Shown here piece after piece: positions 12,159-32,821 of a stretch of DNA of 35,934 nt (its first letter is position 1; the number at the start of each line of letters is the position of its first letter). Source of the DNA: Craspedostauros australis. Its lineage: Eukaryota. Location: NCBI GenBank assembly GCA_030167865.1, contig JALAGF010002914.1:1-35934 (forward strand), given 5' to 3'. The notes under the pieces were generated by a model. It searched no databases. It saw nothing but the letters and a program-made list of their open reading frames with translations, and was not told the DNA's origin. The position numbers were made by a program, and so were the translations under genes.

Positions 12159-13731
12159 GTTTGCTGGATGTGGTTGTGGTGTGGTTCCTTTCGGTATGAA
12201 CGTCGATGCTGGTGTTGGTGTCGATGCTAACGTGAGTGTTGATGTTAACGCGAGTGTTGATGTGAGTGCGGATGTGGGCGCGTGTGATGACTGCTTGGCG
12301 TGTCAAATTGTGTCAAGGTGGTTGGTCAGTACTCAGTGGCACAGAGGAAGGCTCGGTTTTGACCGTTGGTTGTACTTCGTACCCACAGGTGAGTGAGGGA
12401 TTGTTGTGTGCTGAGCACCAATACGGGATGCTGGTAGCCGATCTGGTCACCGCCACGGAAAAGATCGGATCAGCGAGCCACAGCAACAAATCAAGGTGTC
12501 GAGACTGCACACAAACATTGAGAAAGGAGCAACCGCAGCGATGGGGAGAAACAGGAACCGGGTGTGGCACGCAGAAATACGCGAAGACAGAAGGATAGCA
12601 TCATGGAGGGCACGCAGGATGTCAACGGAGATGGTGGAAGAGGCAACGATGTCAATGACGGAACAGGCGGCTGAAGTTCCTTGACACTCGTCGAACGTTC
12701 CGCAACACTTTGTTCCAAGGTGGGTGCGCACTTGAGAACCAACGTGTCGTGTTTTGACACAAAGATACCTTTTGATGCGCGCGCTCGCGCCGTAGATCTT
12801 CTACGTGAATCAACCAATCACTCTTGCGACACTTCTCTTGCGCTGGATCTTTCGTGACATCCAACTTCGGCGTTTTGCGCGTCAGTTTGGTAAATGGGCA
12901 AAGTGACAACAAGATTCACCCCAACACTCCGACACAACCGCAAACCCACCGCTCGGAATCGGACGCAAAGGGCGGTTGCGATAGCCAACTCGAGAGAGCC
13001 ACTTGCATGGTGGTATGCTTCTCTGTCCCGAGACGAAGTGCTTTGATACTGTCACGCTTTTTGTGCCGTCCCGAGGAGAACGGGGATTGGCACTGCAGAC
13101 ATGCGCATACGTATGCCCTACTCGTCGGAATGAGAACAAATGAAGGCGAAAGGGATGGCCGCGCGTTCATTGATGAAGGCCGGTTCTGAGTTGTCGAGGA
13201 AGACGATCTTATCTCTTCGCATTTGAAGTTCTATCTAGTGCATTAACTATGGTCAGGAAGAACAAAGGGAATCGCCTGTGGCGCAGCGATCCAAGCTCCG
13301 ATTGCGTCGTTGCGGAGAGGGTGCACACGAGGCCATGGTGCGCATACTGCCCACCTGGCCTGAAATCATCTTTCTTGGGAGGCCACTCCTCAACTCTCGG
13401 TTTTGTAATACGTATGTGTGCATGCCACAGAATGCTCTGCGCCTCTTACTTGTCTACATTCAACGAGAAGTTCTAACGGGAACGGGCTATGGGAAGTGAG
13501 TCTCGGCACCGTGGATGAATTCTTCGGCGCAAGAAACAAGAAATCAGCTCCCTCTTTGGGTGGCGCTGGTGGTGTAGCCGCATGAGCGCTCAGCGTTGAG
13601 GACCATACCAATCGAGGCTCCGAGGAGGCGACGCAAACGAAAGAATGTACGTACTCTATCAATACGACCACTCTACCTAAAGTCGTTTCATACGATAGGT
13701 CACGCCAAAGGAGCTCGCCAGAATCGTTGGG

Positions 13732-13761
13732 CTCGATGGTTCACGCCTCGATGGTTCACGC
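13732..13761 (+). repeat. Perfect 15-bp tandem duplication (ctcgatggttcacgc x2)
   Basis: Read directly in intergenic DNA. Confidence 0.8.
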
Positions 13762-14945
13762 ATCTCGCTCTCTCTCTGCCCGATAGCACCGACGTCTTTT
13801 GGATCTACGAGTACTAGTACGAGTACGAGCACGTAGGAAGGAATAGCAGGGATCGTAACAGATTGTCCGTTTGCGTAGAGTCGTCGGATCCATAACCGGA
13901 GCGGCGGAATCTTAAGTGTTGCATTCCGTCATGGAATTCCCAAGTGCCGTGCCAACCACAGCAGGTACCCCCAGTCAGAACTGCAGAACAGAACGTTCCA
14001 ATTCAGTCGCAGGTTCGGCCTCACACGCAGCGCTGTAGCGAAATTAGAGGAGACGAATTGGAACAGGAACATGACCCGACCACGACCACGACGGCGATGG
14101 CGACATGGTGCGTCGAACAGTGGTAGTCTTTGCGCACTCGTTTCCAAAACCAGAACAACCCTGGTCTCAGAGAAATTCTTCCTGCCTCCTCCCGGCTGCG
14201 ACCAACTCGCACATCCACTCGCACACTCCCCCTGGAATAGTGCTCTGCGAGTGTAGTATTCTGCTTCATACTACCTACTCCCCGCGAGAGAGCTTCCCAC
14301 ACCCAAGACATCCTAATGCAAAGATTAGCAAGTTCCCACGAAGACGACAGACAAGAAACGGCAGATCCCACGAAGAAGGGCGAACACACCGAAATTTCGA
14401 AATTCTTTTGAGAATTGTTCATCGCGGCGAATTCCACCAACAAGTATCCATGGACGCTAACAAAGTACCTTGGCAATGGAGGGATGGACAGACTATGCCT
14501 ATTTTGGCGCCAAAACAGATTTGCGTCTGGGCAGAGCGGAACAAAAGTGACGAAGAGCCTCGAAGTCCTACAAGTTTGTGTACGGTGCAGCTCGTATCCG
14601 CGAAGAGGATGTCCATAGTTTGAATCATCCTCTTTGGGAGTACTGCCCGATCCTGTTGTGGGTCATTCTTCACGATAGTGTACCATAGTAAACAAGTACT
14701 CTAAACACGTGCCATACTTGTATGAATTCCCACAGATGAGTATTGTGCGCAAAGTGCCATTCATCATTTTGCACAACGAAAACCTGAGACGTGGCACAGA
14801 ATCAGCCACCAGCTGACGCACACGAAGATACGATAGGCACCTGTGGTTTGAAACAGGCCATAACTCCAGCAATTGTCGCAACTGCAAGAACTGAAGTCTT
14901 CTGTGCGAGTGGACCACAATCCACTTGAAGTCCAACAGCGACAAC

Positions 14946-17374
14946 ATGCACTCGAATTCTCGCGGCACCGCAAGACCGTACTACGCGGTCGATGCGAGCG
15001 ACAACAGCGTGGCGAGCGATGGCTGGTCGACCCTCCAGGACAACTCTGTTGCGGCCAGCGACGGCGACAGCGCCACCTACGCCACCTACACCTCCCAAAA
15101 GTCGCTGCTCGACACGATCAACATCGTTCAGGAGGACATCAGCGTGAAGCCAATGCGTGCGGTCGCCAACGTCGCGGAGGATCGCAAGCCCAAAGCCAAG
15201 GACAACGACGATGGCGCCGAGGAGAACCAGCAACAGGCGGCTGCGGGCGGAGCTGCGGCAGGTGTTTCCATGGCATCCATCTTCTCGGCGCAGCTCATCG
15301 CCAAGAAGTTCGCGGAAAAGATCAAGAAGACTGTGGCGGAGGACGTCAAGCCCAACATCACCCAGACCATCGAGCAAACGCAGACCATGCTGCAGGCGCA
15401 GGTCGCCAGCATCCAGTCCACCACCCAAACGACCATCGATTCCGTCTCGCGACAATCCAAGCGAGCTTCGGCCGCCTTTCAAGAAAAGGCCGTAGAACCC
15501 TTGCAAAAGAAGACCCAGGAAACGGTGGAGGCGATTGGCAAGTCATCGCGACAGGTGGTGGAAGAGCAGGTGGTGCCGAAGTGGCAGGCCGTGCAAGATA
15601 CGACGCGTGCCACGGTGGACACCCACATTCGACCGCATGTGGAACGTGGATCGGTGTTGCAGGCCAAGATCGCTCCGTACTATGTTGGAAACGCGCAGTC
15701 CTTCGTGCGACTGTACTCCTACGAACCCCCGCAAGACAAAGAAGATGACAACGTAGAACTTGAGACGCGCGCGGTCGTAATAGAAGGTGAAGGCCCCGTG
15801 AAAACGGACCAGGACGTCGAAGTCGCAATCACATCGAAGCCCAAACCAAAGGACCAAGCGACGCGGCAATGGATTCATTTCGCAGGCGTCATGCTCGAGG
15901 CGACGATGCGTGCGTGCGGACGCGTTGTGTTTTGCAACAATCCTATCACAGGATTGATCATCTTCCTGACGTTGACAGTGGCACATCCGTGGCTAGCACT
16001 GTCAGCCTTTGCGTGCGGACTCAGCACCAACGTCATCGCGCATCATCTGCAGTTGGGGACAGAGCAGATCACGTCAGGGCACTTGGCGACTTGCAGCGTC
16101 TTGCTGGGAGCGGCGTGCGTTGGGTACTTCGATGTCACGGAGTGGAAGGCAGTGGCAAGCTCTGTCTTCCTCGGCGCCCCGATGGTGCTCACGACAACAC
16201 TCGTGCTGCAGCAGAAGTTGGGATCGGAGTTGCCGCTGTTGCATCTGCCCTACAACGTGGTACTCCTGGCATTGCTCCTGGCCTCCGTGTCATGGAATCA
16301 GTTCTCCATCATCCGCGTTGTCCTCGTCGATGAGATCCAAATGGAAAGCACGATCAAAAACATCCTCACGGGGATCTGGAAGTCCACGTGGTGCGGTATC
16401 GGCATGATCTTCCTGGCGCCGCAGCAGATCTGGGTTGGCATTGTGATTTGGTGCAGCATACTGCTGTACAGCCGCATCGTCGCAGTATCCATGCTCCTCG
16501 CCTCCTTCCTGGCCTCGCTTGGTGCTGCCGTGTTGATCGGCATCCCGCCCGGAACCTTGCACACTGGATTGATCTCGTACAATGCCGCACTTTCGGTCGG
16601 CGCGATCGTGTCCTACCAACGACACTCCAGCCTCGCGGCGACCTGCCTCATGGGCTTCTTCGCCATCGTGTGGACGGGCATCGCGCAGAGCTCATGGAAT
16701 ACTCTCTTTTCATTCATCGCGTGAGTACTCATGTGTTCGATGTTGGATGATATTGTGTTGCAGTCAGTTTGTGCAAAGCGACGATGATTGCAATGGTGAC
16801 AAGGCTGAATATCCAAGGCAAATGAGGATGCTCAACTCAACTCAACTCGACACCATCTGCAACTCTCTCTCACATGCGTATGGTACATGCTCTTTTCCCT
16901 CTCTCTTTCTTTCTCCGTATTCATCTTCGACTCACGCTCTCCAATGCTGCACTCTACAGGAACCTTTCCATGCCATTGACTGTGCCATTCTGTGCAGCGG
17001 CGTTCTTGCATCTGATGATTGGGACCATGCCGTCTTCACCCATCGGATCAGTTCCACGGGAGAATGCCATCGACATACCACCGGAGGACGATCTTAGCAC
17101 CCCTCGCCCGACCGAAGAAGACGCAGATGGCGATGTTCCCTTGGTGCCTCCGGCGGCGATTAGCGTCCCAACCCAAAGCCAAGTGGGTGTTTCAAATCAA
17201 AAGGAGTACGGTGGGAAGGAAGAGACCAAATCAGACAACTACTACGGCGCTGTGGAAGAGGATGGTAGCGACGACGACAGTGCAGGAGTCCACGTATTCT
17301 TGGACGACTCCACGGAAGATGCTGAGCATTCAGAGCACAACCTGGTCAACGAAGAGACGCCGTTGCTTGTGTAA
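14946..17374 (+). CDS. Urea transporter (UT / SLC14 family) homologue with long N-terminal extension, 2 exons (14946-16720, 16960-17374)
   Basis: UT signatures RACGRVVFCNNPITGLII, CGIGMIFL...GIVIW..ILLYSR and GLISYNAALS. After splicing (GTGAGT at 16721, CAG ending 16959) the C-terminal MPLTVPF motif is in frame. Multiple hydrophobic segments. Confidence 0.85.
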
Positions 17375-17546
17375 TCAGCCAGTCCACCAGCGACACGGCC
17401 CTGTGCAGTCCGTGTGTGGATTGAACATGCCATTCGTTTTCTCTCTATATATATATACTAAAACAATGTAATATATCATGCGGTATGGTGTATGCGCAGT
17501 ATGTGGGACGGGTGCATCTGGTTGGTCTCAACTGCTCTCCGAGATA

Positions 17547-18651
17547 TCACGCAAGAGTGTAGTCAGCGTCATCAGTCGAGTTGGTGGAAATAAAGTGAGT
17601 CTTGGACTCTGCTCGTGTCACTGGCGTCATCTCGCTCGATGGTGAGACTGCACCGCTCTCTACCATCTCCAAGCGCTGATTCACGGCACCTTCCAGATTG
17701 TGCGAGTTCGACGAGAGCCCTTCTGCCAGTTCTTCGCTCCCGCCGCTTGACTGCGAAATTAGAAAGGTGCGCAGGAAAGGTGCGCAGGAAAGGTGCGTAA
17801 GAAGGTAAGTGAGAAACGTGGGTAGGTGTAGAGGATATATGGCATGAGTTGAGGCATGTATGTGAGTCGATCAACGTGGCTCAGATGAGGCATACACCAA
17901 CACATACAGAGAACAGTTGGCCGCCTTCTTCATTGCTCACCCAATGACTACTTACCCTTTTGCGGTACAATGCCGCAGCGACGACGGCGACCAGAACGGC
18001 CGCTGCAAGCAGGTAGTTGGTAGGGTTGAAGATGCCCTCGGATCTCATGGTGTCCGTCGATCGTGTGGTACCGCCGGATGTGCCCATCTCGGCGCTGCCT
18101 CCATTGCTATCTCCATTCGCCACGTAGGCATTGTAGCCATCTTCTCCATTCCCACCGTTGCCGTAGACGTAGTTGGCCTGTTCTTCGCAGTCTTCGTCGC
18201 CCTCTTCACATTCCACGGCGCTGTATTCGCAGTTGTTCTCAACACCGACGTAGGATTGCATGTAGACGCAGTCGCCGTAATAGTCTCCAAGGGTGTCAGC
18301 ATCGCAACAGCTTGGTGCGCAGGATGTCGTGTCATCCGTGCTCGAGCACAGGGCCAGGACTTTGCAGATAGGTTTTTTGCTCTCGTGCAAGAGATTGCAT
18401 TTGGGTGTGGGACAAATCTTGCTTGGTCGTGAACATACTTTTAACGAGTACAGCATGTGCGACCAGGAAAAGCGAGACGAGAAGGTCCCCGATGACAACT
18501 CCCTACGTTGCTGCGTGGCAGAATTGCTTCGTGATGCTGCGACTGCTGCTGCTGCGACGTGGGTGGTCGTTGTGCTGGCCAAGCAGAGCATTGCCAGCAC
18601 CATGATGGCGGAAGTTGTCATGTTCGTTCTGTTGCAGGTTGATGTCATCAT
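17547..18651 (-). CDS. SAP-like single-pass membrane protein A (silicalemma-associated-protein-like), 2 exons (18651-17956, 17750-17547), about 299 aa
   Basis: Signal peptide, RREL (RXL) motif, Cys-rich and acidic luminal region, TM YLLAAAVLVAVVAAALY-RKR. GTAAG donor at 17955 and CAG acceptor at 17753-17751 give exon 2 SSGGSEELAEGLSSNSHNLEGAVNQRLEMV...DADYTLA*. Confidence 0.8.
17762..17797 (+). repeat. 13-bp tandem repeat (gaaaggtgcgcag, about 2.8 copies) inside the intron of SAP-like gene A
   Basis: gaaaggtgcgcag gaaaggtgcgcag gaaaggtgcg read directly. Confidence 0.8.
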
Positions 18652-19948
18652 GGTTGCTGTCTCTCTGTGTGCGCGGTGAGCGAGTGGACTTTGGTTGATG
18701 CTCTGTCTTGGGCGGTAGTGTTCTTGTCTTTTCTGTTGCCTCGAAGTTTGTGGGGATGCATGTTTGTGAGTTGTTACCTCAAAGTTGAATGAGTGGTGGC
18801 GTTTGCGTTTGGGCTGGCGTTTGCGTGATGGATGGAGAAGTCGCAGAAAGATGAAGCTCAGCGCGGTGACTTGAGAGAATGTTGAGTGGTGACCACTCGC
18901 ATGGATGGCAGTTGGGTTGAATTGCCGGCGCGGAGAGCCTCAAGGGAGAGAGACGGTGATAGGAACTGGGCTGTATCCTGTTGTCGTCACATTGTCTTCT
19001 TGCGTTGCGTTGCGTTGCGCTTCATTTGCGTTGAGCTGGGTTCGATCAAAGCAAGCTTTCTTGAATGTCACGGATGGATGTCACGGATGCAACGCACATC
19101 GACGTTCTCCTCTCCGCGCCAAGGTGACCCTTCCTCATCTCGACTCCGTTCGCCTCTCCTTGCCTGGTTGGTTTCCTTCACATCGGTAGTACAAGTTGTC
19201 GACTTGTGGACATGTTGTCTTGTTGTGTTTGTATTGCCATCGAAGGAGGTTTCTCTCTCAAGCCGTTGCAACGCTCCCAACGAGCAGCGAAGGGATGACA
19301 CTATGGATGCCAACAGGTGACAGCGAAGCTTGGTGCACGTTGTGCCTCATCCAACTACGATAGCCAAATTGTGCATTTTGCACCTCCAGCGCCAAACCCA
19401 TGGTGATTGTCGACGCGCCCGGCGCTCGCCATAAGTACTTTCATGTGTGTTCTTCGCTGGCTTGCTGACGGTTCGGAAAATTGCAAGCAGTCTTGTTTGT
19501 TTCGTGGAGTTGCGTGTCGCAGATGGGGATCCACAAGACCAACATGGCCTCTGTTTGGCTGTTCTCTCCTTTCCATTTCGCTCTCTCTCTCTGCTTCCGG
19601 CTTGGCTTGAAGAGGGATGTTGGTCTTGGTTGAACGGAGGCTCATGCCGATGGTTGATGTCTGGAACTCTTCTTGTCACAGTGTGATTCATGTGCGTGTG
19701 GTCTTCTGATAGACTGCGGAACGGAGCAGAAGCAGAGCCCAAGTATTGTAGCATACTCATCGGATGCATGGTGGGTTATCACTCTCATCTATGGTGTTGT
19801 TAATATTGATTTTTCATTCATCACGCTAATTGTTGTCACATCCTTATTCACATGTTGGCGCGCTTGCTCTGTGTATTCTACTCGTAGTAAAGCACTCGAG
19901 TTGCTTCGTTCCATTGCTTGTAGTTACTTGTTGTGTTTGAGGCGAAGC

Positions 19949-20971
19949 TCAAACATTGACCGTTCCGTCGACGTCCGTTTGTCTGTAGCCTCCGCCGTTG
20001 GTCGGTGAGTTGGGTGACATTCGCGAGAACAGCGTCATTCGCTTGTTGAGGGCTCCGCGAAGTGGATGCAGTCGCGGTGATCCGGCTGCTCGTGCTCGCT
20101 GGTTCCTCCTGCCGAGGACGGCTCCGACGAACATTGACACGACCACGGCAGGCAGCAGGAACAGCAGCAGGTTGCGTCTACCTCTGCGTGCGCCGTCGCT
20201 CCTTGTCCCTTGTCCGCCGTTCAGGAAGTTCCTGCTGCCGCCACCGGAACCTCCACCTCCACCGGATCCACCGCCTGATGAGCCTTCGTAGTACGACACG
20301 AAGCCTTGGCATTCTGAGTCGCAGCTGCCTGTGGCGGAAGAAACAGAGCCGCTGCTGGATCCACCTCCACCTCCACCAGAGCCGCCGCCTCCACCAGAGC
20401 TGCTGCTACTGCTGCCGCCTGATCCTCCACCTCCAGAACCGCCGCCGCTGCCTCCGCCCGATCCACCACCTCCGGACCCACTTCCACCAGAACCGCCCCC
20501 GGATCCTCCTCCGCCACTACTGCCTCCTCCCGATCCACCACTACCGGAACCTCCTCCGCCTCCAGAGCCTCCACCCGATCCACCACCAACGGAACCTCCT
20601 CCACCTCCAGAGCCTCCGCCACCGGAAGGCACCTTTCCAGCATCAAACTCGCAGTCATCTCCGTCACACTTGTAGTACTTCCGGCACTGCTCGATCTTGG
20701 AGTGCGGCTTGCAGACTGGTGGCGCGCATCCGAAGGGACCGTCGCTGGGGTGCTTGCACATGCCGACCTTGTACATAATGTTGGTGAAGCTGAAGGAGAG
20801 GTTGCGTTGTCGTTGCTGCTGCATCTGCTGAAATTGCAGCTGCTCTTCGATGCTCATGTCTTCAAACTTGATCGGTTGATGCTCCATGACGTTGACTTCA
20901 TCGGCCAAGGCATGGTGGATGGCGGCCACGGCCAACAGCATCATGAGGAAGGTGGTTCGTTGGAACATCAT
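19949..20971 (-). CDS. SAP-like single-pass membrane protein B with poly-Gly/Ser luminal tract, about 340 aa
   Basis: Likely start MMFQRTT (ATG 20971). Signal peptide ...HHALA|DE, RQRNL (RXL), Cys-rich segment, about 100-residue G/S tract, TM LLLFLLPAVVVSMFVGAVLG, cytosolic HPLRGALNKRMTLFS. Confidence 0.85.
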   Translation of the reverse strand: MMFQRTTFLMMLLAVAAIHHALADEVNVMEHQPIKFEDMSIEEQLQFQQMQQQRQRNLSFSFTNIMYKVGMCKHPSDGPFGCAPPVCKPHSKIEQCRKYYKCDGDDCEFDAGKVPSGGGGSGGGGGSVGGGSGGGSGGGGGSGSGGSGGGSSGGGGSGGGSGGSGSGGGGSGGGSGGGSGGGGSGGSSSSSSGGGGGSGGGGGGSSSGSVSSATGSCDSECQGFVSYYEGSSGGGSGGGGGSGGGSRNFLNGGQGTRSDGARRGRRNLLLFLLPAVVVSMFVGAVLGRRNQRARAAGSPRLHPLRGALNKRMTLFSRMSPNSPTNGGGYRQTDVDGTVNV

Positions 20972-21483
20972 GCTGCTGTTGCTATTGCTGATATTGATGA
21001 TGTTGTTCCAGTCCACGCTTTGCTGTTTGCTTGCTGGTTTCGTTTGTGTTGATTGTCGTGTTCTGTTTCGTCGTGCTATCAGACCTTCTGGATTACTACT
21101 GCAATTCTAATTGTGATTGCGGATGTCGATGTCAGGTTCGAGGTTGCTCTCTCTCGTTTGTGTCTTTCAATCTTGTTCAGCGCTCGCGCGTGCAGCAATT
21201 TTTGTGGACTGGGTTGTGGCTGTCGCCTTGCAATTCTGCGATGCAACATGAAACGCCCGTCTCTTTCTCACTCCGAGAGGCAGAGGGATTTGGGAGAAAC
21301 CTTCGGTGGCAATCCAGGACTGCGCAACGCTCCCTCGACCAAGACACAGAGATGGAGAGGCAATGCACACCGTCGTGGAGTACGCAACGACGCCTCTGTC
21401 TGGTGCGTTTTTGTCGAGAAGGAGAACTCCGCATCGTCCGTTTGGTCTCTCTGTGAAGCAAGTGAGAAGTTTGGAGCGTCGCA

Positions 21484-21516
21484 TCACATTTTTGTGAGGT
21501 GCGCACAAAAATGTGA
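21484..21516. repeat. Perfect 13-bp inverted repeat with 7-bp spacer (tcacatttttgtg-aggtgcg-cacaaaaatgtga)
   Basis: Arms 21484-21496 and 21504-21516 are exact reverse complements. Lies in the divergent intergenic region between SAP-like B and the MFS gene. Confidence 0.8.
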
Positions 21517-22143
21517 GGTGAGTTTTGTTCCTAGCGTTAATTAGTGGGTGTCAAAATAAATATATTGAATTATGCTATTGAACGATGGGGACAATAACGG
21601 TCGGGCTGCCTAAATACGGTCGCTAAAAGCTATCAAGATGTATGTGTGAAGTGTCACAACTAAGAACAGAAATGTCACAAAACGTGTTTGGACAAACTCA
21701 ATCGACTTGGTCGTATTGACACTCATGAATGAATGGAGAAATGGGAATGCTTTTGTGCAACCACAAATCTGGAATCCATTCGACGCGAACGTTGTTGTTG
21801 TTGAAGTCATTGTTGGCCTCAGTGGCCACCATCTCAACCAGCGCGCAAGCAGCCAAAGAGAGGCGGAAGCGAAGAAAGATGCATGCACAGGTGATCATGC
21901 TTTGAATCGTATTGCATTCTATCGTATTGCATTGCATGGCGCCGCATTGAATGACATTGGTGGCTGTTGCAACTTTGACTTTGTCGGGGCTGTCTCACAT
22001 TCGTTGATCGAGTGTTTGGATCATCGAGTTCCGGACGTACTTCCGCATGGCATATACTCGTACTTCGTACTTAAGTATCGCACAAGCACAAGCACAAGCA
22101 CACAAAGAGAAGACAAAGAGAGAAACAGAAAGATCGGCTCAAG

Positions 22144-24230
22144 ATGGCATCGCAAGAGATTGACGATCGACCGAAAGATGGCGAGGCTGGATCTGCGTCC
22201 ATCGCAGAGGCAGAGACGGAGCCGTTGCTGACAACGATATTCGGTGTGATGGGGAACGTTCTGGGTGAGCATATCAATAACGTGCGACTTCGTGAGAGAG
22301 ACGGTGGCACTTTGCGCATCAGAACAGGGATGGATCCAATGCGATGATCGCACAACTTGATTCAGCGTGGACATGACTACGCAGTGCATACGTGGACGTA
22401 CCTTGATTTTGTGCTCGTGTGATACCAGGTCCCTTTCCAATCTCATCCAAAGATGCTCGCTCGCTCTCTTCCGCCTTTCCTTCTTTTCTTCCTTCCGTGA
22501 TCCGCTTACATTCTAACTTTGCTCACGGCTTCATCTTTCGCATCATCATCATCTACATCATCATCAACTAACGCAATACCAACCTTTGACGAACAAACAG
22601 AATGGTATGACTTTGCGCTGTTTGGATTCTTTTCCGGTACGTCCATCTATCCTTGCGTACGCGTATCGACGTTGTGTGCCACACCCCCAGGTGGTGATGA
22701 TCGAGCCTGTGGTCCAAGCACACTGATCATGGAACGCCCACAGGTATTGTATCACAATTGATGTGTGGGGTGCCACTTTCGTCACATGGCTTGTACGTAC
22801 GCATTCACATAAATTCGTCACCAACAATGACACACTCACACCATCAACAATCGCATCAAACAATCACTCCTCATATTATATGAGCAGACATCATCAGCGA
22901 CGTGTTCTTCCCCGAAGAAGACGAGGATGACGAGCATTCCAACCTCATCAAGAGTTTTGCCATCTTTGGCAGCGCCTTCCTCATGCGACCCATTGGCGGC
23001 ATGCTGATCGGTTACGTGGGCGACAAGCACGGACGCAAGCACGCATTGACGCGCAGCCTGTTTCTCATGGCAATCCCAACCACGTTGATGGGATTGCTGC
23101 CGACGTACGATCAGGTGGGAGGTTTGGCCATCGTTTTGCTGGTGCTGTGTCGGTTGCTGCAGGGTATTTCTGTCGGTGGTCAGCTGCCAGCATCGTTGGT
23201 GTACACGGTCGAAAAGAGAGATCCTGCGCACTGGGGGTACTACGGCGCGCTGCCCATGGTGGCAGCCAACTGCGGGACTTTGTTGGGCAATCTGTGCGGC
23301 GCGTTCATGAGAGAGATCTTGACGCAGGAGCAGCTACGAGACTTTGGATGGAGACTGCCATTCTTTTCTGGCATCATCATCGCATTCGTCGCATGTTACC
23401 TCAGCCGTCATGGCCAGGACGTGCATACCAACGCGAACGTGTACGATTCCGAAACGAGCGAGATCAAGAACCCGTTGCGAGCCGCGTTTCGTCGGGAGAA
23501 TCGGCTGGCCCTGTTCAGCACGTCGCTGGGACCGATGCTGTGGGCTGCGGGATTCTACCTCACGTACGTGTGGCTTGCCATTTACATGGAGGAGCTGCTG
23601 GATCCGTCCGTGACCAACGCCTTCTGGGTGAATGCCTGCAGCCTGTTCTTCGGCATGACCTTCATGCTACCCATCGCCGGACATGCCTCGGATCGGCTGG
23701 GCCGCATCAGGACCATGACGGTGGCAGCTCTTGCTTTGATGGTGGCGGGTCCGATCATGCTCGTCGTCATCGCACGCGGCGGGAGCTTCGCAGCCTTCCT
23801 CGCACAATGGTCGGTGGGTGTGATGCTCAGCTTCTTCGGCGCGCCGTTGTGCGCATGGTTGGTGGAATCCTTCGACAGCAGCGTGCGATTGACGAGCGCG
23901 TCGCTGGGATACGATCTTGCCCACGCCATCGCTGCGGGATACTCTCCCGCGATGGCCACGGCGTTGTTCAAGGACGTTGGCAAGTACGCGCCCGGCATGT
24001 TGTACACCATCTTTGGGTTCTTGTCGTTGGTGGGCATCTACACGAACCACTTTTGCGGTGGCAAAAATCTGACCGTGGAAGGCGGCGATGCATCGACGAC
24101 TGGCAGCACCAATCTGAGCAACAACAATGGCATTTCTTCAGCGAATGGGACAGGCAATGGGGATCTGGAATTGAGCAGCAACAGCAACACTCCTGACGAA
24201 AACAATGTTCCGTTGCCACAAATATCCTAG
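22144..24230 (+). CDS. MFS transporter, metabolite:H+ symporter (ProP proline/betaine-like) family, 3 exons (22144-22264, 22601-22636, 22888-24230), about 499 aa
   Basis: Splicing restores the MHS signature GNVLEWYDFALFGFFSDII...FFP. Also FLMRPIGG..IG..GDKHGRK, LLPTYDQVG, RLLQGISVGG, GWRLPF and SDRLGR. Confidence 0.92.
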
Positions 24231-24543
24231 ATAGGACTATTCATGTCAAGGACAGTGATCGAACATTGGGCAATGGCAGAACCAGAGTATTCCGTTTCCA
24301 AACGAAGCAACGTTGATAATTCAAAATAGGACTTGCATGATTTTAAAGTGTTGATTTTGTTGTTGGATTTTGTGTTGTCTTTTCTGATGTGTACGTTTAG
24401 CTGCATTGCATCACGCCGTCATCACTGGATGTCGATTTCATTGCAATTGTTTTGTCGTATAGTACAAGTAGAACACTCGTAGAGTATATAATAGCACTTT
24501 GTGGAAGATCACCATGCGGTTCGCAAACGCACTTTGCTTCTCC

Positions 24544-25206
24544 TTACTTCTTCAAACTGATCATGACGCGTCCGTCTCTCTCTCCGAGCGCGTACACGGG
24601 CAAAGGACCGGCCTCCTTATTGGCCGAAAACAGGGACTTGGCGATACCACCAAGGAGACCCGTCTGTTCTGCCGATTCCAGCTGCTCTCCCGTCGTGAGG
24701 CTGTACGTCGACTTGCAGAAATCGCAGCTCAATCGTGGCGCGCCCTTGCTGTCGTCACTGGCTGGCAGGACTTTGGCCTTCGTCAATGGGATCTTGCACG
24801 ACGGACACGAGACGCTGAAACAGAACATGTCGTCGTCGTGTTTGAGGACCGACACGGCGCCCTGGGGATTGGTGTTGCGATCGACGAGCGGCAGGGCCAT
24901 CGTCTCGATGAGCCCGATCTTGCCTTCCTCCTTGGGCAGATCCTTGGTCCTGATCTTGGGCACGGTGATCCATTCCTTTCCGCTGCCGGCGCTTTGGCCC
25001 AGACTGCCCTGTCCTGCGGAGCCCTTGGAGTTGCCGCCGCTGTTGCCCAATTCCTTTTGGAAGGAGCCGCGTCCGCGCTTCATCATCAACGCAGAACGCT
25101 TTGTGGGTGCCGAATACGATGGCATGATGTAGGCATTCGTCATTGCTGGTGCCATGACGACGATCTGCGCGCAGATGGTCATGAGGATTGGGCTGATAGA
25201 CTTCAT
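24544..25206 (-). CDS. Plastid-targeted Rieske-fold protein with atypical four-Cys ligand set
   Basis: Signal peptide ending TNA|YIM (aromatic residue at +1, ASAFAP-type) followed by a basic Ser-rich transit peptide. CPSCKIPL ... LSCDFCKSTYSLTTG ... LPVYAL.ERDGRV.I aligns with the Rieske ferredoxin pattern. Confidence 0.75.
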   Translation of the reverse strand: MKSISPILMTICAQIVVMAPAMTNAYIMPSYSAPTKRSALMMKRGRGSFQKELGNSGGNSKGSAGQGSLGQSAGSGKEWITVPKIRTKDLPKEEGKIGLIETMALPLVDRNTNPQGAVSVLKHDDDMFCFSVSCPSCKIPLTKAKVLPASDDSKGAPRLSCDFCKSTYSLTTGEQLESAEQTGLLGGIAKSLFSANKEAGPLPVYALGERDGRVMISLKK

Positions 25207-26199
25207 CTTGATAACTTTGTTCTTCTGCTTCTTCTGGGCTGCTTCTGATTACGATTTATGATTGAGCGGGGGTAGACTCGAGCAGAGATCTCTTCGTTTT
25301 GCACTCTCCATTCTCCATCCCGCATGCTCTGGTCCCAACATCGTTGCGACAGAACACGACAGCATCACCTGATCGTCGCATGACTGTTGCCATGGTGGCG
25401 AGTGATGTTGCAGTGTCGATCCTGCGTCATGTTGATGTTGTGGCGTTCTCATTTCACCACTTCACATCAACAACGTCATCACAAGCAGTCGAGCTATTCG
25501 GACACAGTCAGAACAAGTTCTCAAAACACTCTAGCTTTGTGCGGAGATACTAGTATACTCCGATGAATGACCATGTGACACTGCAAAACAAGACCTGCTC
25601 GGATTCTTGTTGGGTTCCAACTCCTCGATTATCGGTCATCACCAACAGACAACCGAAAATATCATCGGAGTCAAACAAGATTGGGATGAGCCGGATCTTG
25701 TGGATGATAGTTGTCACACACAAGCTCACCCGTTCGATGGCGATCATACCGTCTAAATAACGTCCCAAGGTACTGTTTGTTGGGTTGACTGCGACGAAAG
25801 TTTATGTCACATGGGTCGCCGTTCAAATTCGATCTTGTGGAAGCACGCTTCCCACAAATTGGCATGGTGCGGCATTTGAGTTGGTTTCTCCTGTTCTTAT
25901 GAAGCCTTTCGCCAACACGACCGCCAATTGGGCACGGAAGTCCGCAACGTGTTGTAACGCGGGAGCACTCTGCCGTACATCACCACACAAACAAGAAAGT
26001 GGAAATTAGGAGCATGGGATGAAGAGCACACAATCTACAACCAACAACAATCAACAAGACATTCAACAGCCTCGACGAAAACGATATCCGTAACACCAGC
26101 TGAAGCATCGACTGGAGCATCAACCGAAGCATCAAGAGGTAGTAAAAGCAACAACAGAAGCAATAGTAACACCGCAATAGCAACAGCAATCGAGACAAG

Positions 26200-27201
26200 A
26201 TGAGAACGACAAGCATCCTCCTCCTGATCGCCGCCTTGGCGTTCGCCCAAGCAAAGGACCCCACCACAGCAGTCGAAAAGAAGGAAGACAGAATACTGTC
26301 AGGTACGATTCTAGCACAGCGCAGCGCAGTGTCACGCCACACGACAGTCAAGCATGGAACGATGCAGAGCCTGTCATGCATGGGGGTCCACCTTGGGCTT
26401 CGATTGATCGGCTGTTTGATGGATAGGTCACCGATGTTGCTTGAGAACTTCTCCCTAGTCGCAATATCTGACATTCAGTCCGCCCTTTCCCATCTCCTCT
26501 CCCGCCATTCCTCGACTTGACTCCACTCTGCTCTCTTCTTTCATATTGCACCTATTGCTCGTACTGCGCCTATTGCTGCAGACTACATCCCACCATCAAC
26601 GCACACGCCAAAGGCACACCCGCCAAAGAACCCAAGCACAACCACAGCAGCAGCATCTGGAAGCGGATCAGGATCGGGAAGCGGCGGCGGTTCAGGTAGC
26701 GGCGGTTCCGGAGGTGGAAGTGGCTCAGGTAGCGGTGGATCCGGAAGCGGAGGTGGCTCTGGCAGCGGTGGATCCGGAAGTGGAGGTGGCTCAGGCAGCG
26801 GCTCAGGCAGCGGCGGTTCCGGCTCTTCTTTCAGCAGCAGTAGCGGCGGCTCAGGCAGTGGAAGCGGTGGAAGTGGCTCAGCGAGCAGCGCCACAGGCAG
26901 CGATGGAGGCGGCAGTGGCGCCTTCGGAACAAACGGCTCGCGATCGACAGGATTCAACCAGAACATGCGACGAACGGGACCAATGGTCCTCGTGGGTGCC
27001 GCTGTTGCCGTGGGTGCAGCCATCGCTGTCACAGTGCGTACCAAGCAAAAGGTTACCTCGAATGATCATCCGCTCAAGGGAGCTCTCAACCGCAGAATCA
27101 ACCTCTTCTCTTCCATGGCCACGCACGGTTCCGGAAGCAGACCCGCACGCAGAGATCAGGAAACAGAAATGGGATACGTCAATGCGAACAACATCGTGTA
27201 A
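26200..27201 (+). CDS. SAP-like single-pass membrane protein C with Gly/Ser repeat, 2 exons (26200-26302, 26582-27201), about 240 aa
   Basis: Exon 1 MRTTSILLLIAALAFAQA|KDP...EDRILS (signal peptide + RXL). GTACG donor at 26303 and TGCAG acceptor ending 26581 give an in-frame DYIPPSTHTPKAHPPKNP, GS-rich tract, TM MVLVGAAVAVGAAIAVTV and HPLKGALNRRINLFS. Confidence 0.85.
26695..26793 (+). repeat. Three near-identical 33-bp coding repeats (GSGGSG[GS]G[SG]GS) in SAP-like gene C
   Basis: ggtagcggcggttccggaggtggaagtggctca / ggtagcggtggatccggaagcggaggtggctct / ggcagcggtggatccggaagtggaggtggctca. Confidence 0.8.
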
Positions 27202-27717
27202 ACGGTGTCGCATCATGCGATGCAACGCGATGCACAGCCCCTCTATGTGTCTGTCTCTCTTGTTGTAAGCATGCCACGCAAGGACATGTCCCACCCTCCT
27301 CTACGTTCATCCATCTACTGCTCTGCTTCATTTGAAAGAACAAATCCACCACAACACCACATCAATCCATTTCAACGATTGGTCCAATAAACGCAACATC
27401 ATACTAGCAAACTGTACCATTACTACGACAACACCCGGCGCAGCTTTTGCTCCCGTACAGCCTTGAACTTGAACCGTGTTTGATTCGGACGCGGCTATTT
27501 CTTTGGCGAAACGCGATCCCGCCAACCGAATTTGATTTGTCCAGCGGAGATTCTCTTTCTGTTGTGGGAACACTCCGACATCTCGCACACAAAACTAGCA
27601 CATGATCGTTGTTCTCGGATGGCTCCAGCAACAAAAGATCCACTCTCTGGCACAGTGCTCATACTACTCGACACTACCAACATCGACATTGACATCAACA
27701 TCAACACTCACGCTAAT

Positions 27718-27744
<27 letters not shown>
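27718..27744 (+). repeat. (AGC)9 microsatellite just upstream of the MscS start
   Basis: Read directly. Confidence 0.85.
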
Positions 27745-27748
<4 letters not shown>

Positions 27749-27750
27749 CT

Positions 27751-28980
27751 ATGTCGAGACGCTCTGTATTCGACGCTCAACGCATCATGCCGGCCACATC
27801 GGCAGCCGACGAGTTCTGTGAAGCACCACCGGCGACGCAGGATGAGGAAGCGTCTCCTGCTTTGGCAGGCAACATCCTTCCCTTCTTCAAAACACTCATC
27901 TTGGCACCCATGGAGGCCAATCTGATCCTGCAGGAGGTCCTGCGCTTGTGCCACTGGGAGGACGTCCTCTTCATCCTCTGCATGGGCTGGCTGCTGCTTC
28001 CGTTGGTCGAAACGTTCTACAACCACAGCACTTCGAGCGCTTCGGCGCCATTCCGACAAACCAGATGCTACCACATCGTCAGTCTCATCGCGCAGATGAG
28101 CCAGATCGCTCTCCTGATCTACATCGTCGATATCCTCGACATCGCCAGAGCTGCCGTCGGCATTTCATTCCGAAGCACCAGGGACATCCCGGTCACCTTC
28201 GCCAAACTCGTCTACCTCCTCTGGGCGGCGCGCAAACTAGCGCGCTTCAAGAATTACCTCCTCCTCAAATCGACCGACGGCAAGCGCCCGGGCCTCATGC
28301 ATCTCATCGACCGCATGCTCGATGGCATCATCGCCTGCATCACCCTCTTCTCCGTCGTCGACGTCCTCGACGTGGAAGGCGCCGGCCTCAAGAGCTTCAT
28401 CACGTTCGGTTCCGCCGGTACATTGGCATTCACGCTGGCGTCGCAATCGATCGTCAGCGCCATCGTCAACGGATTCGCATTGAGCGCGTCGAACCGATTC
28501 TACGTCGGCGAATTCGTGCGCTTCGGCGACGGCACGTCCGGCACCGTCATGAAGTTGGGTTGGATGGAGACCATCTTACGCAGCAGCGACAACCTCATCG
28601 TCGCCGTGCCCAACACGCAGCTGGCGGGACAGCGCGTCACGAACTTATCGCGCCATGATCGCTGTCAGGTCCTGCAGCATTTGCGGTTCGATTACGACGA
28701 TATGGACAAGCTGCCCGCTCTCGCCGAGACGATCCGTCGCGAGTTGCCCAAGGTGTGTCCCAACTTGATCATGGATGGATCGCGACCCTTTCGCGTCCTC
28801 GTCAGCGATATGTGCGATACGCACGTGGAGTTCATGGTCAATGCGCATTTCGCGTTGCCGCCGATCGGCGATCTGTACTGGACGAATCGGCAGCAAGTCA
28901 TCCTCACGATCCATCGGTGTGTGCAGGAGCACGGATTGAAGATCGCCGTGCTGCGGTTCGGCGGTGTTGCGAAGTCTTGA
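27751..28980 (+). CDS. Small-conductance mechanosensitive channel (MscS family)
   Basis: Likely ATG at 27751. TFGSAGTLAFTLASQSIVSAIVNG...FYVGEFV.F...SGTV.KLGWMET.LRSSD.LIVAVPN.QL....VTNLSR is the MscS TM3 / beta-domain consensus. Confidence 0.9.
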   Translation: MSRRSVFDAQRIMPATSAADEFCEAPPATQDEEASPALAGNILPFFKTLILAPMEANLILQEVLRLCHWEDVLFILCMGWLLLPLVETFYNHSTSSASAPFRQTRCYHIVSLIAQMSQIALLIYIVDILDIARAAVGISFRSTRDIPVTFAKLVYLLWAARKLARFKNYLLLKSTDGKRPGLMHLIDRMLDGIIACITLFSVVDVLDVEGAGLKSFITFGSAGTLAFTLASQSIVSAIVNGFALSASNRFYVGEFVRFGDGTSGTVMKLGWMETILRSSDNLIVAVPNTQLAGQRVTNLSRHDRCQVLQHLRFDYDDMDKLPALAETIRRELPKVCPNLIMDGSRPFRVLVSDMCDTHVEFMVNAHFALPPIGDLYWTNRQQVILTIHRCVQEHGLKIAVLRFGGVAKS

Positions 28981-29302
28981 AATGCTCGCGGCGTGGATCT
29001 TCATGATGGGGTCATGGAAGAGTAGGTACAAAGAGGCGACGGCGGCCATTGGAGAGGGAGCGTTGTAATCATCTGTTTCATGTCGGCGCCTACGAGTAGA
29101 GAGTGCATGATGGATCTATCAACAAGCTGTGGTTGATGTTGATGTTGGTGTCGGCGTTGGTGTCGACGTTTGCGTTGGCCTACCCGGTACGGTAAAATGC
29201 AGCGATGGTACAAAGTTGTATGTGTGCATAGGTCGTACGCATGCTCTTGCACACCCACGGATATTTAGTGTCACTACGAGTACGATCATTTCAATCTAAG
29301 AG

Positions 29303-31190
29303 TTATGCTTGAAAGGCCTTGAGGATGGCCTCACTATCGGGCCGCTCCTCCCCGGCCAGCATCGGCACGTACACCTCACCTTCGTTGTTCATCAAATCGC
29401 GACGCTGATGTGCCACCCACGGTGCCGTCGGTGACATCTTCGTCATGCAACCAAGGATGGGAAAGTAGGATGTCCCGCTGATGTAGATGTTTTGGAAATG
29501 ATAGATGGTCTCGAAGGAGTTGGCGAAATCCATACGCTGCTGCCTGCCACGCACGCTCTGCTGTCCCTGCGAACTGATCTTGTCTTCGAGGTCGGCGTTG
29601 ATGAGGATGACGGGCCGATCGCCCGCGGCTTCCACCATCTCCTCCAACGGCCTGATGATGGAAGATTCGATGCCCACCATGCTCTGCGGAGCGATGAGGA
29701 GGAAGACATCGTCCTGATGCACGGTCGAGCCATCCTCTTCGTTGATGTGCTCATCGACGACGTGCTCCTTGCCGATGGCACCGAAATTCAAATAATCCCC
29801 CACCATGCCCTCGTTGATCTCGCCTTCCTTCGATTGCCAATCCATCATCTGCAGGAGCTTGGCCACGCCGTTGAGTTGCTTGGGCACGCCCGTGAAGATG
29901 CCCACGCCCATGCTGCCCTGCACGCAGACGCGCACGCGTAAGTTACCTTCCTCGATCAAGCGTATCGTGATGGCGCGCACCATCTCGAGGATCGTGCCGA
30001 TGCGGTAGCTGTCCATGGAGGGGTTCATTTCGGGGAACATGCTGACGATCTTCATGCGGTTGGATACGGTCGTGGCATTGGAGTTGGCGCATCGGATGAC
30101 GGCATCCAACGTGGCTTGCGCTGCCATGTCATAGAAGTACTGTCGGACGTACCGATTGTGTGGCACCTGGTTGAGGTAGAGATTCTCCTTGATTTCTCCC
30201 CTGGGCTTCTTGATGTCGTCCTCGGGATCATCGTTGAGCTGAATCCCGAGCTGAATCAGTTTGCCCGTCACCGCTGGGTGGTCGACGATCCAGCAAAAGC
30301 GCAGGAGCTTGCGAATGACGACGTCCATTGGTGATAGGTTCTCGAGGAATTCTGGCCGCACCGGTGCTTGAACTGACGAAGCGACTCGTGATTTGGATAC
30401 TGGCATGGCATCTACCTCGCGAGAGTAGGTTGGGATTGAATTGAATTGCATGGCATTAAATCAAATGAAGTGGCGTGCAGTCGAACGAGATGAGTACAAG
30501 GAGAAGAGTGGTGGGCAACAGGAGGGGCAGCCGGTGGATACGAGCAGAGCACAAAATTAATAGGCAACATGGGTATTAAACAGAAACAAGAGCTCAAGGT
30601 CCGACACCCACACATCCATTCATGAATGCAAATGATGTGCCGTCCGCGATGCACAGCCATCCCCACTCACCCATATCTACCGTGACAGTTTCAGAACGTG
30701 GTGGCTTGCCTCGTTCCTGAATCTGAACATCCAATTCCATGGACTGCGTATCGATGTTGATGAGCTGAGAGCTTTCAATGAGGTACGATTCACCGCTCCA
30801 GGCATTCTTCTGCTTCATTTCTTGGCCCAAACTCGAAAAGACTTCTGCGATGGATCGCAATGTGTCAGAATGGTGCTTGTTCAAGTATCCCATGGTGAAA
30901 TCCAACTGCGAAGCACTGAGCGATGCATGCTGAGATGATGATGGCGTTGACGATGATGTAGACGGCAATGGCGATTGCCTTGATTTGGCTGTATTGGAAC
31001 TGGCATGGCCAAGGTGTCTCTGATGCTGTTGCTTTCCGAAGTCTCCGAATGCTGAGGATGCATCCCCATCACACTGATGACGATGGCAATAACTCGAGGA
31101 GACATGACTGCCGTGCGTGGTGAACCCAGTCGTCACGCTCGCGCTCACGCTGATGAGCAGCACCACCAAAGAACTTCTGAAAGTGAACAT
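29303..31190 (-). CDS. Plastid-targeted DUF2470 + DUF1995 protein, 2 exons (31190-30671, 30411-29303), about 542 aa
   Basis: Signal peptide ending TG|FTT plus a transit peptide. MGYLNKHHSDTL...INIDTQSMEL is DUF2470-like. FPEMNPSMDSYRIGTILEMVR...RVRVCVQGSMG.G.FTG.P...DRPVILINADLED resembles the DUF1995 domain of plant plastid adenylate kinase 5. GTGAG donor at 30670 and TAG acceptor at 30414-30412 are phase-consistent. Confidence 0.8.
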
Positions 31191-31636: not shown

Positions 31637-32821
31637 CTACCTCGCACCAATGATCGCAGACGGCCGATGCTCCTCATGATCCAAGCTCCACCACAGATTG
31701 AGGTACGGCATCTTCTGTCGTTTCAGATGCGCCATGATCCACGGCACGGTGGTGCGGTATTCCTTCCACGTCACATCGTTCTTGGGACCGCGCACTTTGC
31801 CTTCTCCCACCAACCTGTATCCCGCATCGACCAGTATCTGCAGCGCTTCCTTGACGAGATGGAGGTTATGGATGCGTGACTCCTGACTCAGCTCCATGAA
31901 GACGTTGCGCACCTGCTGCGTTTGCAGCAACCGTCGCGCACCCAACAGAACCTGCGCTTCGTGATCCTCGACGTCGATCTTGAGGATTTCGATGCGCGGC
32001 ATCATGCTGCCGGCATCGAGCCAGCCACGATTTTGCGCGAAGTCGTCCAACGTGATGACGGGCAACATGGAAACGAGGGCATCGTCGAGCTTTGCATTTG
32101 CGTCACTTGCTTTGCCATCGTCGACAGTCCGAAACTGCCCTGCGCCAGGATTGACACGATTCTCCACAAACATGGCCTGGCTCGTTTGATTGGATAACCC
32201 GTACGCGAATACGTTGATGCTTGCATTTCCTGTTTCCGTTCCGTCCCATCCATTCAAATGGATGGATTCGCACAGCCGTCTTTGATTGTGCGGATTGGGC
32301 TCGAACGCATCCACCGTGATTGCACTGCGCGCGCTCGCACTCAATAAGGAGTAGTATCCAATGTTGGCGCCCACATCCATGACGTGCAACTTGTCGCCGT
32401 TCGCCTTGGACAGTAAATGCTCCCAGATCTCTTCCAAGATGAATTCGTAGTACTGCCCGCGTTCCATGATCATCCAGCGGCCTGGATCGAACTCCTTGGA
32501 ATGCAGCGAAATCCAAAAGGGATGTTCGCCGGTCGTCTCGCGTTTGTGAAGGATGGTGCCGTTGGTGGTGTCGCGCAGCAGCGCTGGACAATCGACCGTC
32601 CGGTACTCGCGCTGCAGATGATTACTGCTCGAGATCATTGTCGGCATGATCTGCATTTCATTCATCAGGGCCCCTTGTTCGGTGTATTGCATGGATGTGA
32701 CCAGCAAAGTGATCACGACGAAGACGCCTTGCAGCCACCTCGACTTGCATGCTCTCAATCCCACAGCCACAATGGTTGCGTGGGTCCTCCTCTTTTGTGA
32801 GCTCTTCAATGGTGGCACCAT
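31637..32821 (-). CDS. FkbM-family (Methyltransf_21) SAM-dependent methyltransferase with N-terminal membrane anchor
   Basis: VMDVGANIGYYSL, DAFEPNPHN, VITLDDF, ILKIDVEDHEAQVLLGA; N-terminal hydrophobic WLQGVFVVITLLVTS. Confidence 0.9.
   Translation of the reverse strand: MVPPLKSSQKRRTHATIVAVGLRACKSRWLQGVFVVITLLVTSMQYTEQGALMNEMQIMPTMISSSNHLQREYRTVDCPALLRDTTNGTILHKRETTGEHPFWISLHSKEFDPGRWMIMERGQYYEFILEEIWEHLLSKANGDKLHVMDVGANIGYYSLLSASARSAITVDAFEPNPHNQRRLCESIHLNGWDGTETGNASINVFAYGLSNQTSQAMFVENRVNPGAGQFRTVDDGKASDANAKLDDALVSMLPVITLDDFAQNRGWLDAGSMMPRIEILKIDVEDHEAQVLLGARRLLQTQQVRNVFMELSQESRIHNLHLVKEALQILVDAGYRLVGEGKVRGPKNDVTWKEYRTTVPWIMAHLKRQKMPYLNLWWSLDHEEHRPSAIIGAR

Follow-up and report, generated by a model that had tools for sequence, protein, structure and literature searches.

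Background

Silicalemma-associated proteins (SAPs) of diatoms are defined, in the available text of Tesson et al. 2017 (PMC5647440), by a signal peptide, an RXL site after it, a serine-rich lumenal segment, one transmembrane (TM) helix, and a conserved segment of 28 amino acids (aa) just after the TM helix. The members listed there come from Thalassiosira pseudonana (three), C. cryptica (three), T. oceanica (two), F. cylindrus (two), and eight centric transcriptomes (PMC5647440). The C. cryptica proteins (CcSAPs) are given, in the accessible part of PMC10503012, as 213-310 aa long with an "SG-rich domain", a TM helix of 21-23 aa, and a C-terminal region of 58-68 aa that includes a conserved 23-aa piece after the TM helix. 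SAPs are among the few proteins whose knock-down is known to alter diatom silica patterns, and the available text of both sources portrays them as occurring mainly in centric species and as poorly recovered by BLAST (PMC5647440, PMC10503012). Here, we analyze three neighboring genes (A, B, and C) in a window of 35,934 nucleotides (nt) from Craspedostauros australis (contig JALAGF010002914.1 of assembly GCA_030167865.1, positions 1 to 35,934, forward strand), which an earlier sequence-only reading had proposed to be a cluster of three paralogous SAP-like genes.

Other properties of silica-associated proteins are relevant to these genes. RXL sites have so far been found only in biosilica-associated proteins, and the lumenal part of TpSAP3 remains in the silica while its cytosolic part is cleaved off, as stated in the available text of PMC5647440. 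Silicanins (silicanin-1 and SiMat7-like proteins) are described, in the part of PMC9894196 open to us, as type I membrane proteins of the silica deposition vesicle (SDV) with an endoplasmic reticulum (ER) signal, one TM helix, a short cytosolic C-terminus, and a large lumenal domain with eight conserved cysteines. The same part of that source proposes transmembrane "dAnk receptors" in the SDV membrane, with SAP1 and SAP3 among the candidates (PMC9894196).

Results and discussion

Gene structure and transcription

We read A, B, and C as paralogues that are expressed and belong to one family of small type I membrane proteins, which fits the SAP architecture and is most likely the pennate branch of the SAPs, a reading to which we assign a probability of roughly 55%; the SAP label for these genes is probable but unproven. 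All three encode, in the same order, a signal-like stretch and an RXL, then a lumenal region, a single TM helix, and a short tail with H-x-L-x-G-A-x-N-x-R, in frames that are uninterrupted from signal peptide through stop. The features are as follows, with TM helices placed by hydropathy and transcript evidence taken from the sequencing run X1 described below.

17547-18651, minus strand: gene A, 299 aa, two exons and one intron
18651-17956, minus strand: exon 1 of gene A, 232 codons, with the signal-like stretch, REL, Cys-rich acidic lumen, and TM helix, ending ...YRKR; covered by a run X1 contig
18496-18504, minus strand: REL of gene A (aa 50-52)
17965-18021, minus strand: TM helix of gene A (aa 211-229)
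17955-17751, minus strand: intron of gene A, 205 nt, GT..AG, phase 0, from the sequence and a run X1 joint
17750-17547, minus strand: exon 2 of gene A, 67 codons and TGA, acidic cytosolic tail ending DADYTLA
17673-17702, minus strand: motif HNLEGAVNQR of gene A
20971-19949, minus strand: gene B, 340 aa, single exon, with a run X1 contig over 19806-20417
20798-20806, minus strand: RNL of gene B (aa 56-58)
aa 266-268 of gene B, minus strand: second RXL, at the edge of the TM helix
20114-20170, minus strand: TM helix of gene B (aa 268-286)
20039-20068, minus strand: motif HPLRGALNKR of gene B, in its basic tail
26200-27201, plus strand: gene C, 240 aa, two exons and one intron
26200-26302, plus strand: exon 1 of gene C, 103 nt, with the signal-like N-terminus and RIL
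26290-26298, plus strand: RIL of gene C (aa 31-33)
26303-26581, plus strand: intron of gene C, 279 nt, GT..AG, phase 1, from the sequence and a run X1 joint
26582-27201, plus strand: exon 2 of gene C, with a P-K-A-H-P-P-K stretch, Gly/Ser run, TM helix, and tail with RPARR, ending YVNANNIV and a stop
26980-27036, plus strand: TM helix of gene C (aa 168-186)
27067-27096, plus strand: motif HPLKGALNRR of gene C

Run X1 is one public sequencing run that contained 56% of the words sampled from the region, and its contigs were placed on 13000-31000 (18 kb). Its record carries no more than the tentative label "RNA?". We consider it RNA-derived because all six of its joints (6/6) have GT..AG or CT..AC ends. 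The two introns predicted from sequence, 17955/17751 and 26303/26581, are exactly those skipped in its spliced contigs: joint 17750->17956 skips 205 nt with CT..AC ends on the plus strand and is the gene A intron, and joint 26299->26579 skips 279 nt with GT..AG ends once the cut is moved by +3 and is the gene C intron. Gene A is fully covered by a contig over 16117-18708 with its intron spliced out, gene C is covered from ~233 nt upstream of its joint to 27431, and gene B is covered only in its 3' part (19806-20417), its Gly/Ser-coding repeats breaking the assembly. Contig depth in this run is unsuited to ranking expression. Two further runs (X2 and X3) gave only matches of 20-33 nt in Gly/Ser-coding repeats, i.e., low-complexity matches.

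The contig over gene A also spans the 3' end of a urea-transporter-like gene, with the intron 16721-16959 of that gene removed. This reflects either a 3' overlap between the convergent urea-transporter-like and A transcripts or a merger made during assembly.

A conserved cytosolic tail

Translation of the whole window in six frames contains exactly three occurrences of H.L.GA.N.R, one per gene, against 0.005 expected per window in 200 base shuffles; neither a six-frame motif scan nor a hidden Markov model (HMM) of the tail on 720 open reading frames (ORFs) found further family copies within the window. With a profile built on the TM helices and tails of the three genes, a HMMER search of 1.84 billion representative proteins matched 57 proteins at E<=1e-3, three of them at E<=1e-10, and each match lay at the C-terminal end of its protein. 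Together with the scores of an HMM of outside tails (below), these matches bear out the proposal that the cytosolic motif is a conserved signature, as the gene models and the motif count do for three paralogues with one architecture.

Family members range from ~150 to 340 aa and run in the order signal peptide, RXL (often RRxL), P-K/H-P-P stretch, Gly/Ser run, TM helix, and a tail of 53-71 aa that extends to the C-terminus, the constant part being the TM helix and tail and the variable part the lumenal domain. The tail consensus, [DE]HPL[KR]G[SA][LV]N[RK]R[IM]xLFSxLAxH......RPPRR..E...Y[IV]NA[DN]..V, falls into three blocks: a helix ~10-20 residues past the membrane ([DE]-H-P-L-[KR]-G-[SA]-[LV]-N-[RK]-R-[IM]-x-L-F-S), a second block that is usually R-P-P-R-R, and a C-terminal Y-x-N-A-x-x-V or Y-x-x-A. 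An alignment of 30 tails shows invariant H, L, G, and R and a nearly invariant F and C-terminal Y. AlphaFold2, given these 30 tails, placed the TM helix at residues 11-29 of the gene C fragment and a second helix, the motif, at residues 40-60, with a pLDDT (the predictor's confidence score) of 85-87 in that block and 69.5 overall. An amphipathic character of the motif helix was considered and rejected, the hydrophobic moment exceeding that of shuffles (p<0.05) neither in any of the three window proteins nor in any outside tail (0/75).

We then have an HMM of 75 distinct outside tails only, run on the 720 stop-to-stop ORFs of the window, which scored C at 91.3 bits (E 1.1e-27), B at 42.6 bits (E 1.7e-12), and A exon 2 at 19.9 bits (E 2.1e-5), against 5.5 bits (E 0.65) for the top unrelated ORF, with the qualification that this model is not fully independent, its tails having been gathered via the window-derived profile. 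Gene A was recovered despite its small contribution to that collecting profile. By BLASTP, many outside tails share 55-59% identity with the C tail, B has matches at ~1e-6, and A has no match at E<=1e-3 among 93 outside proteins. Membership of all three in this family, which we call the HPLxG-tail family, is close to certain.

The three genes nonetheless differ in how they follow the consensus. The 75 outside tails end in V (57), in Y-x-x-A (11), or otherwise (7), and 63 of the 75 carry an RPxR block. Gene C is typical in having both the V end and the block, as RPARR; B has the V end without RPxR; A ends in DADYTLA, like the Y-x-x-A group, and is without the tail F and the RPxR block. Toward the N-terminus, an RXL site is present in 21/26 family members against 4.8 expected from shuffles of the same segments, and among the five that lack it are N-termini that are clearly mispredicted or truncated. 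All four full-length Y-x-x-A members (4/4) also have an "RxL-F-[ST]-W" stretch. A likeness of A (RFSWSHMLY) and B (LSFSFTNIMY) to this FSW subgroup was unsupported, as an HMM of six outside members misses both and its best window ORFs are unrelated (E>=0.35).

The conserved tail has no Pfam match, and a search of PDB sequences with the tail profile gave 0 matches at E<=10. A word-indexed search with the B tail gave no match at E<=0.01, and a tail alignment against longer proteins gave one match (P0058) among 8000 scored candidates, others being probably crowded out. In a tail tree, A and B sit on long branches with no informative neighbors.

Among the outside members, P0032 and P0083-P0091 are ten near-identical proteins (169-179 aa) with one tail and differing Gly/Ser run length, eight of which begin with a non-Met hydrophobic read-through directly before T-P-K-H-P-P. 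This suggests that P0032-type genes carry an intron where gene C has one, between the RXL exon and the P-K-x-H-P-P exon. One other member, P0013, is an apparent mis-framed repeat prediction fused to a true tail.

Lumenal domains on a shared tail

An N-terminal hydrophobic stretch follows one or two charged residues in all three proteins, and only that of A exceeds the threshold of a 19-residue window; signal peptides were assigned from hydropathy and by eye. Each protein has a single strong hydrophobic TM peak, after which the tails of A, B, and C measure 71, 55, and 57 aa, with isoelectric points (pI) of 4.77, 12.00, and 10.90, respectively. The lumenal regions are more varied. In A, B, and C, respectively, serine plus glycine (S+G) makes up 23.9%, 63.2% (S 21.1%), and 70.5% (S 32.6%) of the lumen, the lumenal pI is 4.31, 8.45, and 8.27, and the proteins have 14, 8, and 0 cysteines. 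The "Gly/Ser-containing" lumen of the sequence-only reading thus describes B and C well and A weakly. In B, a six-Cys segment precedes a long Gly/Ser run, which is followed by two more Cys, and the Cys-containing segments just after the RXL of A and B show a weak likeness (BLASTP E 0.005 in a single comparison). Pfam searches with A exon 1, A exon 2, B, and C exon 2 returned only a sub-threshold LPXTG match over the TM helix of A. Upstream of the three genes, no common k-mer of 8 or longer was found, and the 26 common 7-mers, against 6.5 expected from simple shuffles, were judged not meaningful.

Taxonomic range and arrangement of the paralogues

A word-indexed search with the tail of P0005 found 43 proteins at E<=1e-3 among 477 candidates. 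All four organism-named matches (4/4) are from Bacillariaceae, raphid pennate diatoms, namely Nitzschia inconspicua (IV203_020697), Nitzschia sp. Nitz4, a Pseudo-nitzschia MMETSP transcriptome, and a metagenome-assembled genome (MAG) named "Bacillariaceae sp."; the remainder are environmental or transcriptome proteins. Synteny was also sought in other diatoms, with no more than two contigs of ~1 kb (L001 and L002) recovered, both without flanks, and a broad alignment was dropped as a synteny query for being too variable.

In the window, A and B lie head-to-tail on the minus strand with a gap of ~1.3 kb, and C lies on the plus strand 5.2 kb past B. The genes are not strictly tandem, with an MFS transporter gene and a 220-aa ORF without Pfam match between B and C. 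The earlier wording of a "local expansion" does not hold as it stood, the tails being very divergent (C 91, B 43, and A 20 bits) and the Y-x-x-A end of A differing from the V of B and C. Because of this divergence and the different C-terminal type of A, the three look, as judged from sequence, like long-standing paralogues that have stayed side by side and not like the product of a recent burst.

For T. pseudonana, the available texts give near-consecutive numbers to SAP-related genes, 25735/25736 and 25805/25807 (PMC5647440, PMC10503012, PMC9894196), which hints, from gene numbers alone, that SAP genes are neighbors in that species also.

Comparison with SAPs and silicanins

B and C show every element of the SAP definition as printed in the available texts, and the architecture first called SAP-like from sequence agrees with that definition (PMC5647440, PMC10503012). 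An RXL follows the signal-like stretch in each gene (REL in A, RNL in B, and RIL in C), and the conserved cytosolic segment of the family comes directly behind the TM helix. Compared with the "serine rich" TpSAPs, B and C have more Gly in their lumens, which fit the "SG-rich domain" of CcSAPs, as far as these are described in the accessible text. Differences from SAPs are also evident: conservation in the tail family comes in three blocks that extend as far as the C-terminus; the lumen of A is Cys-rich and acidic in place of an SG run, and the tail of A is acidic as well; and the BLAST surveys reported in the available text are without a SAP in N. inconspicua, yet a member of the HPLxG-tail family is present there.

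Composition values offer a further comparison. The accessible part of Table 2 in PMC10503012 gives all three F. cylindrus "SAP homologues" a C-terminal pI of 10.77, a C-terminal SG of 11.3%, a TM pI of 5.57, and a TM SG of 5.3 or 10.6%. Over the 53 residues after the TM helix, P0032 and its nine near-identical proteins have a pI of 10.77 and an SG of 6/53 = 11.3%, equal to the F. cylindrus values. A sister type, P0012 and seven others, has a 19-aa TM helix from Ala with a pI of 5.57 and one S and one G (5.3+5.3), together with a 53-aa tail of 11.3% SG but a pI of 10.67. Because the composition agrees at the natural TM boundary, these values strongly suggest that the F. cylindrus SAPs carry the HPLxG tail, and we regard it as very likely that the proteins listed as "SAPs" in F. 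cylindrus belong to the HPLxG-tail family.

Whether the motif is the conserved domain of SAPs at large is a broader matter, on which we set the family against TpSAPs and CcSAPs by published description and composition values only; we judge this identity fairly probable. In the searchable literature, none of HPLKGS, HPLKGA, HPLRGS, HPLRGA, RRINLFS, or NLFSNLA occurs, and no work on pennate SAPs there describes an HPLxG motif or pennate members beyond F. cylindrus, although supplements may show it.

Several observations weigh against assigning A, B, and C to a SAP-like family. Gene A is without the Ser/Gly-rich lumenal segment of SAPs, having a Cys-rich acidic lumen and no S/G run, and the net charge of its motif helix is -2 against a family median of +3, next to an acidic tail. 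The partial dependence of the 75-tail HMM on the window-derived profile counts on the same side. Among the 93 fetched proteins, no single one combines all F. cylindrus values, and the N-terminal values were not reproduced; likewise, 0/93 match the composition values of T. pseudonana, C. cryptica, T. oceanica, or M. variabilis SAPs at a natural TM boundary, two numerical matches falling at unnatural ones. The lack of a Thalassiosirales match is weak evidence, because the protein library keeps one representative per 50%-identity cluster. Finally, the available text of PMC10503012 describes the post-TM segment as conserved "only within species" and reports that BLASTp at E<1e-5 detected CcSAP homologues in none of five pennates (N. 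inconspicua, P. multiseries, P. tricornutum, S. robusta, and F. solaris). Two explanations offer themselves: a domain that is short and diverged escaped the published surveys, or centric SAPs may have a domain of different sequence, and the latter would speak against our assignment.

The likeness to silicanins is one of layout, with an ER signal, a single TM helix, and a short cytosolic C-terminus in A, B, and C. As compared by description only, the large eight-Cys lumenal domain of silicanins is not matched here: C has 0 Cys, the eight Cys of B lie in two small groups flanking the Gly/Ser run, and both B and C have lumens composed largely of Gly/Ser repeats.

Alternative identities of the family

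The alternative that survives best holds that the family is the same and its job independent of silica. A, B, and C would then be mucin- or proteoglycan-like membrane proteins of the cell surface or secretory pathway, such as extracellular polymer anchors or proteins of adhesion and raphe motility, with glycans on the Gly/Ser run and a tail bound to adaptors as in syndecans. Raphid pennates as the source of all four organism-named members (4/4) would suit such a role, as would lumenal domains made of Ser-Gly repeats. Most tails end in -x-V (57/75) or -Y-x-x-A (11/75), ends that we take to resemble those of PDZ ligands. In the feature space of the Atlas, the C TM helix and tail lie nearest to clusters of syndecan, neurexin, and glycophorin C, but the score, 0.79, is below threshold, and shuffled proteins reach 0.8 one third of the time; A exon 1 likewise scores below threshold, at 0.75 (ORF7a). 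Animal syndecans offer an analogy: their ectodomain is rich in Ser and Gly, a single TM helix follows, and in the short tail a variable stretch separates a conserved membrane-proximal block from an equally conserved C-terminal end. There is no sequence homology and the kingdom is different, so that syndecans may serve as a picture of how such a tail works and not as a sign of membership. Against a silica-independent role stand the RXL enrichment (21/26 against 4.8), such sites being known so far only from biosilica-associated proteins in the available text of PMC5647440, and the F. cylindrus composition match, which leads to proteins already listed as SAPs. On balance, we think this alternative unlikely, with perhaps one chance in a few.

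An improbable alternative is that these are general endomembrane or Golgi housekeeping proteins of the FAM174 type, SAP-like in composition and layout only. FAM174-like proteins (PF06679) are likewise small type I proteins with a low-complexity ectodomain, and PF06679 matches at E<=0.01 were found in 4/21 outside members (P0041, P0064, P0015, and P0005) and in 3/25 in another scan, with P0041 (28.4 bits) the sole member of the 21 to reach the 27.7-bit cut-off. However, these matches cover positions ~8-123 of the 167 in the profile, i.e., ectodomain and TM helix, and never reach the cytosolic tail; the window proteins (A exon 1, A exon 2, B, and C exon 2) have no PF06679 match at E<=1; and the conserved tail itself matches neither Pfam nor, at E<=10, any PDB sequence.

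That the motif arose by chance in non-genes or pseudogenes has a negligible probability, as nothing was found for it save the lack of a BLASTP match for A at E<=1e-3 among the 93 outside proteins, while three motifs stand against 0.005 expected, both introns are precisely removed in RNA-derived contigs that cover all three genes, at least in part for B, the frames are intact, and the HMM scores lie far above those of all other window ORFs.

A possible mechanism

Taking the SAP-like reading of A, B, and C forward, their architecture and the published SAPs would together predict a type I topology, proteolytic processing, residence in the SDV, a role in silica formation, and homology of the tail segment to the conserved domain of TpSAP1-3. 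The signal peptide would direct co-translational entry into the ER, after which a propeptide might be cut at the conserved RXL, as in silaffins, cingulins, and SAPs. The lumenal domain, Gly/Ser-rich in B and C but Cys-rich and acidic in A, would then face the SDV lumen or the cell surface, where a Gly/Ser domain is possibly phosphorylated or glycosylated and might interact with polyamines and silica. On the other side of the membrane, the tail helix and C-terminus may serve as a docking or sorting module for cytosolic partners, whether of sorting or of the cytoskeleton, and the three neighbors would present three lumenal chemistries on one tail.

More tentatively, the H-P-L-x-G-x-x-N-x-R helix, the R-P-P-R-R block, and the Y-x-N-A-x-x-V or Y-x-x-A end may form a diatom-wide docking module, a handle for cytosolic machinery on SDV proteins that would unite centric SAPs with many pennate proteins missed by BLAST. 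The machinery could be adaptor or coat proteins, or other partners that meet the SDV from its cytosolic side, for example the proposed "dAnk receptors". Under this doubtful extension, members would include species reported to be without SAPs, and the chemistries carried by the module would be Cys-rich acidic (A), Cys-flanked Gly/Ser (B), and pure Gly/Ser (C).

Genomic neighborhood

The genes around A, B, and C are of mixed kinds. The urea-transporter-like gene on the plus strand converges on A. The MFS transporter gene between B and C (Pfam MFS_1, ORF 22983-24227) has two upstream introns confirmed by joints 22263->22600 and 22635->22887, with a micro-exon of ~36 nt between them. Another run X1 contig links 22102 to 15732 with four extra letters between and is probably a chimeric assembly; loose ends also lie at 15751 and 22082. 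About 5 kb from C, an FkbM-type methyltransferase ORF (31640-32830, minus strand) lies beside a sulfotransferase-domain ORF (32938-34443, plus strand), both of them protein- or glycan-modifying enzyme types. Near the start of the window, the ORF at 778-2157 (minus strand) encodes a DUF6824 domain (E 4.5e-14), which is typical of diatoms and stramenopiles. A diatom origin of the window would fit this gene, the presence of the HPLxG-tail family, and the small GT..AG introns. Long antisense or off-frame ORFs, rich in P/E/L or V/E, run over the Gly/Ser-coding repeats on the strands opposite B and C (20221-20853 and 26583-27065, respectively) and are repeat artefacts.

Conclusions

If the tail motif is the SAP domain, it would provide a short profile with which to find SAP-like genes across pennate diatoms, and its invariant H, L, G, and R would become targets for mutation, as the tail peptide would become a bait for the cytosolic partners that couple to the SDV. 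Because the three neighbors combine one tail with different lumenal domains, they offer a ready-made series for domain swaps. Should the motif prove to be something other than the SAP domain, the tail still defines a family of considerable size that has no name so far, and every member assigned to an organism comes from a diatom. Together, A, B, and C are newly recognized members of the SAP-like kind, with a putative role in silica, and the definition of the family at the level of a motif would make it searchable across diatoms.

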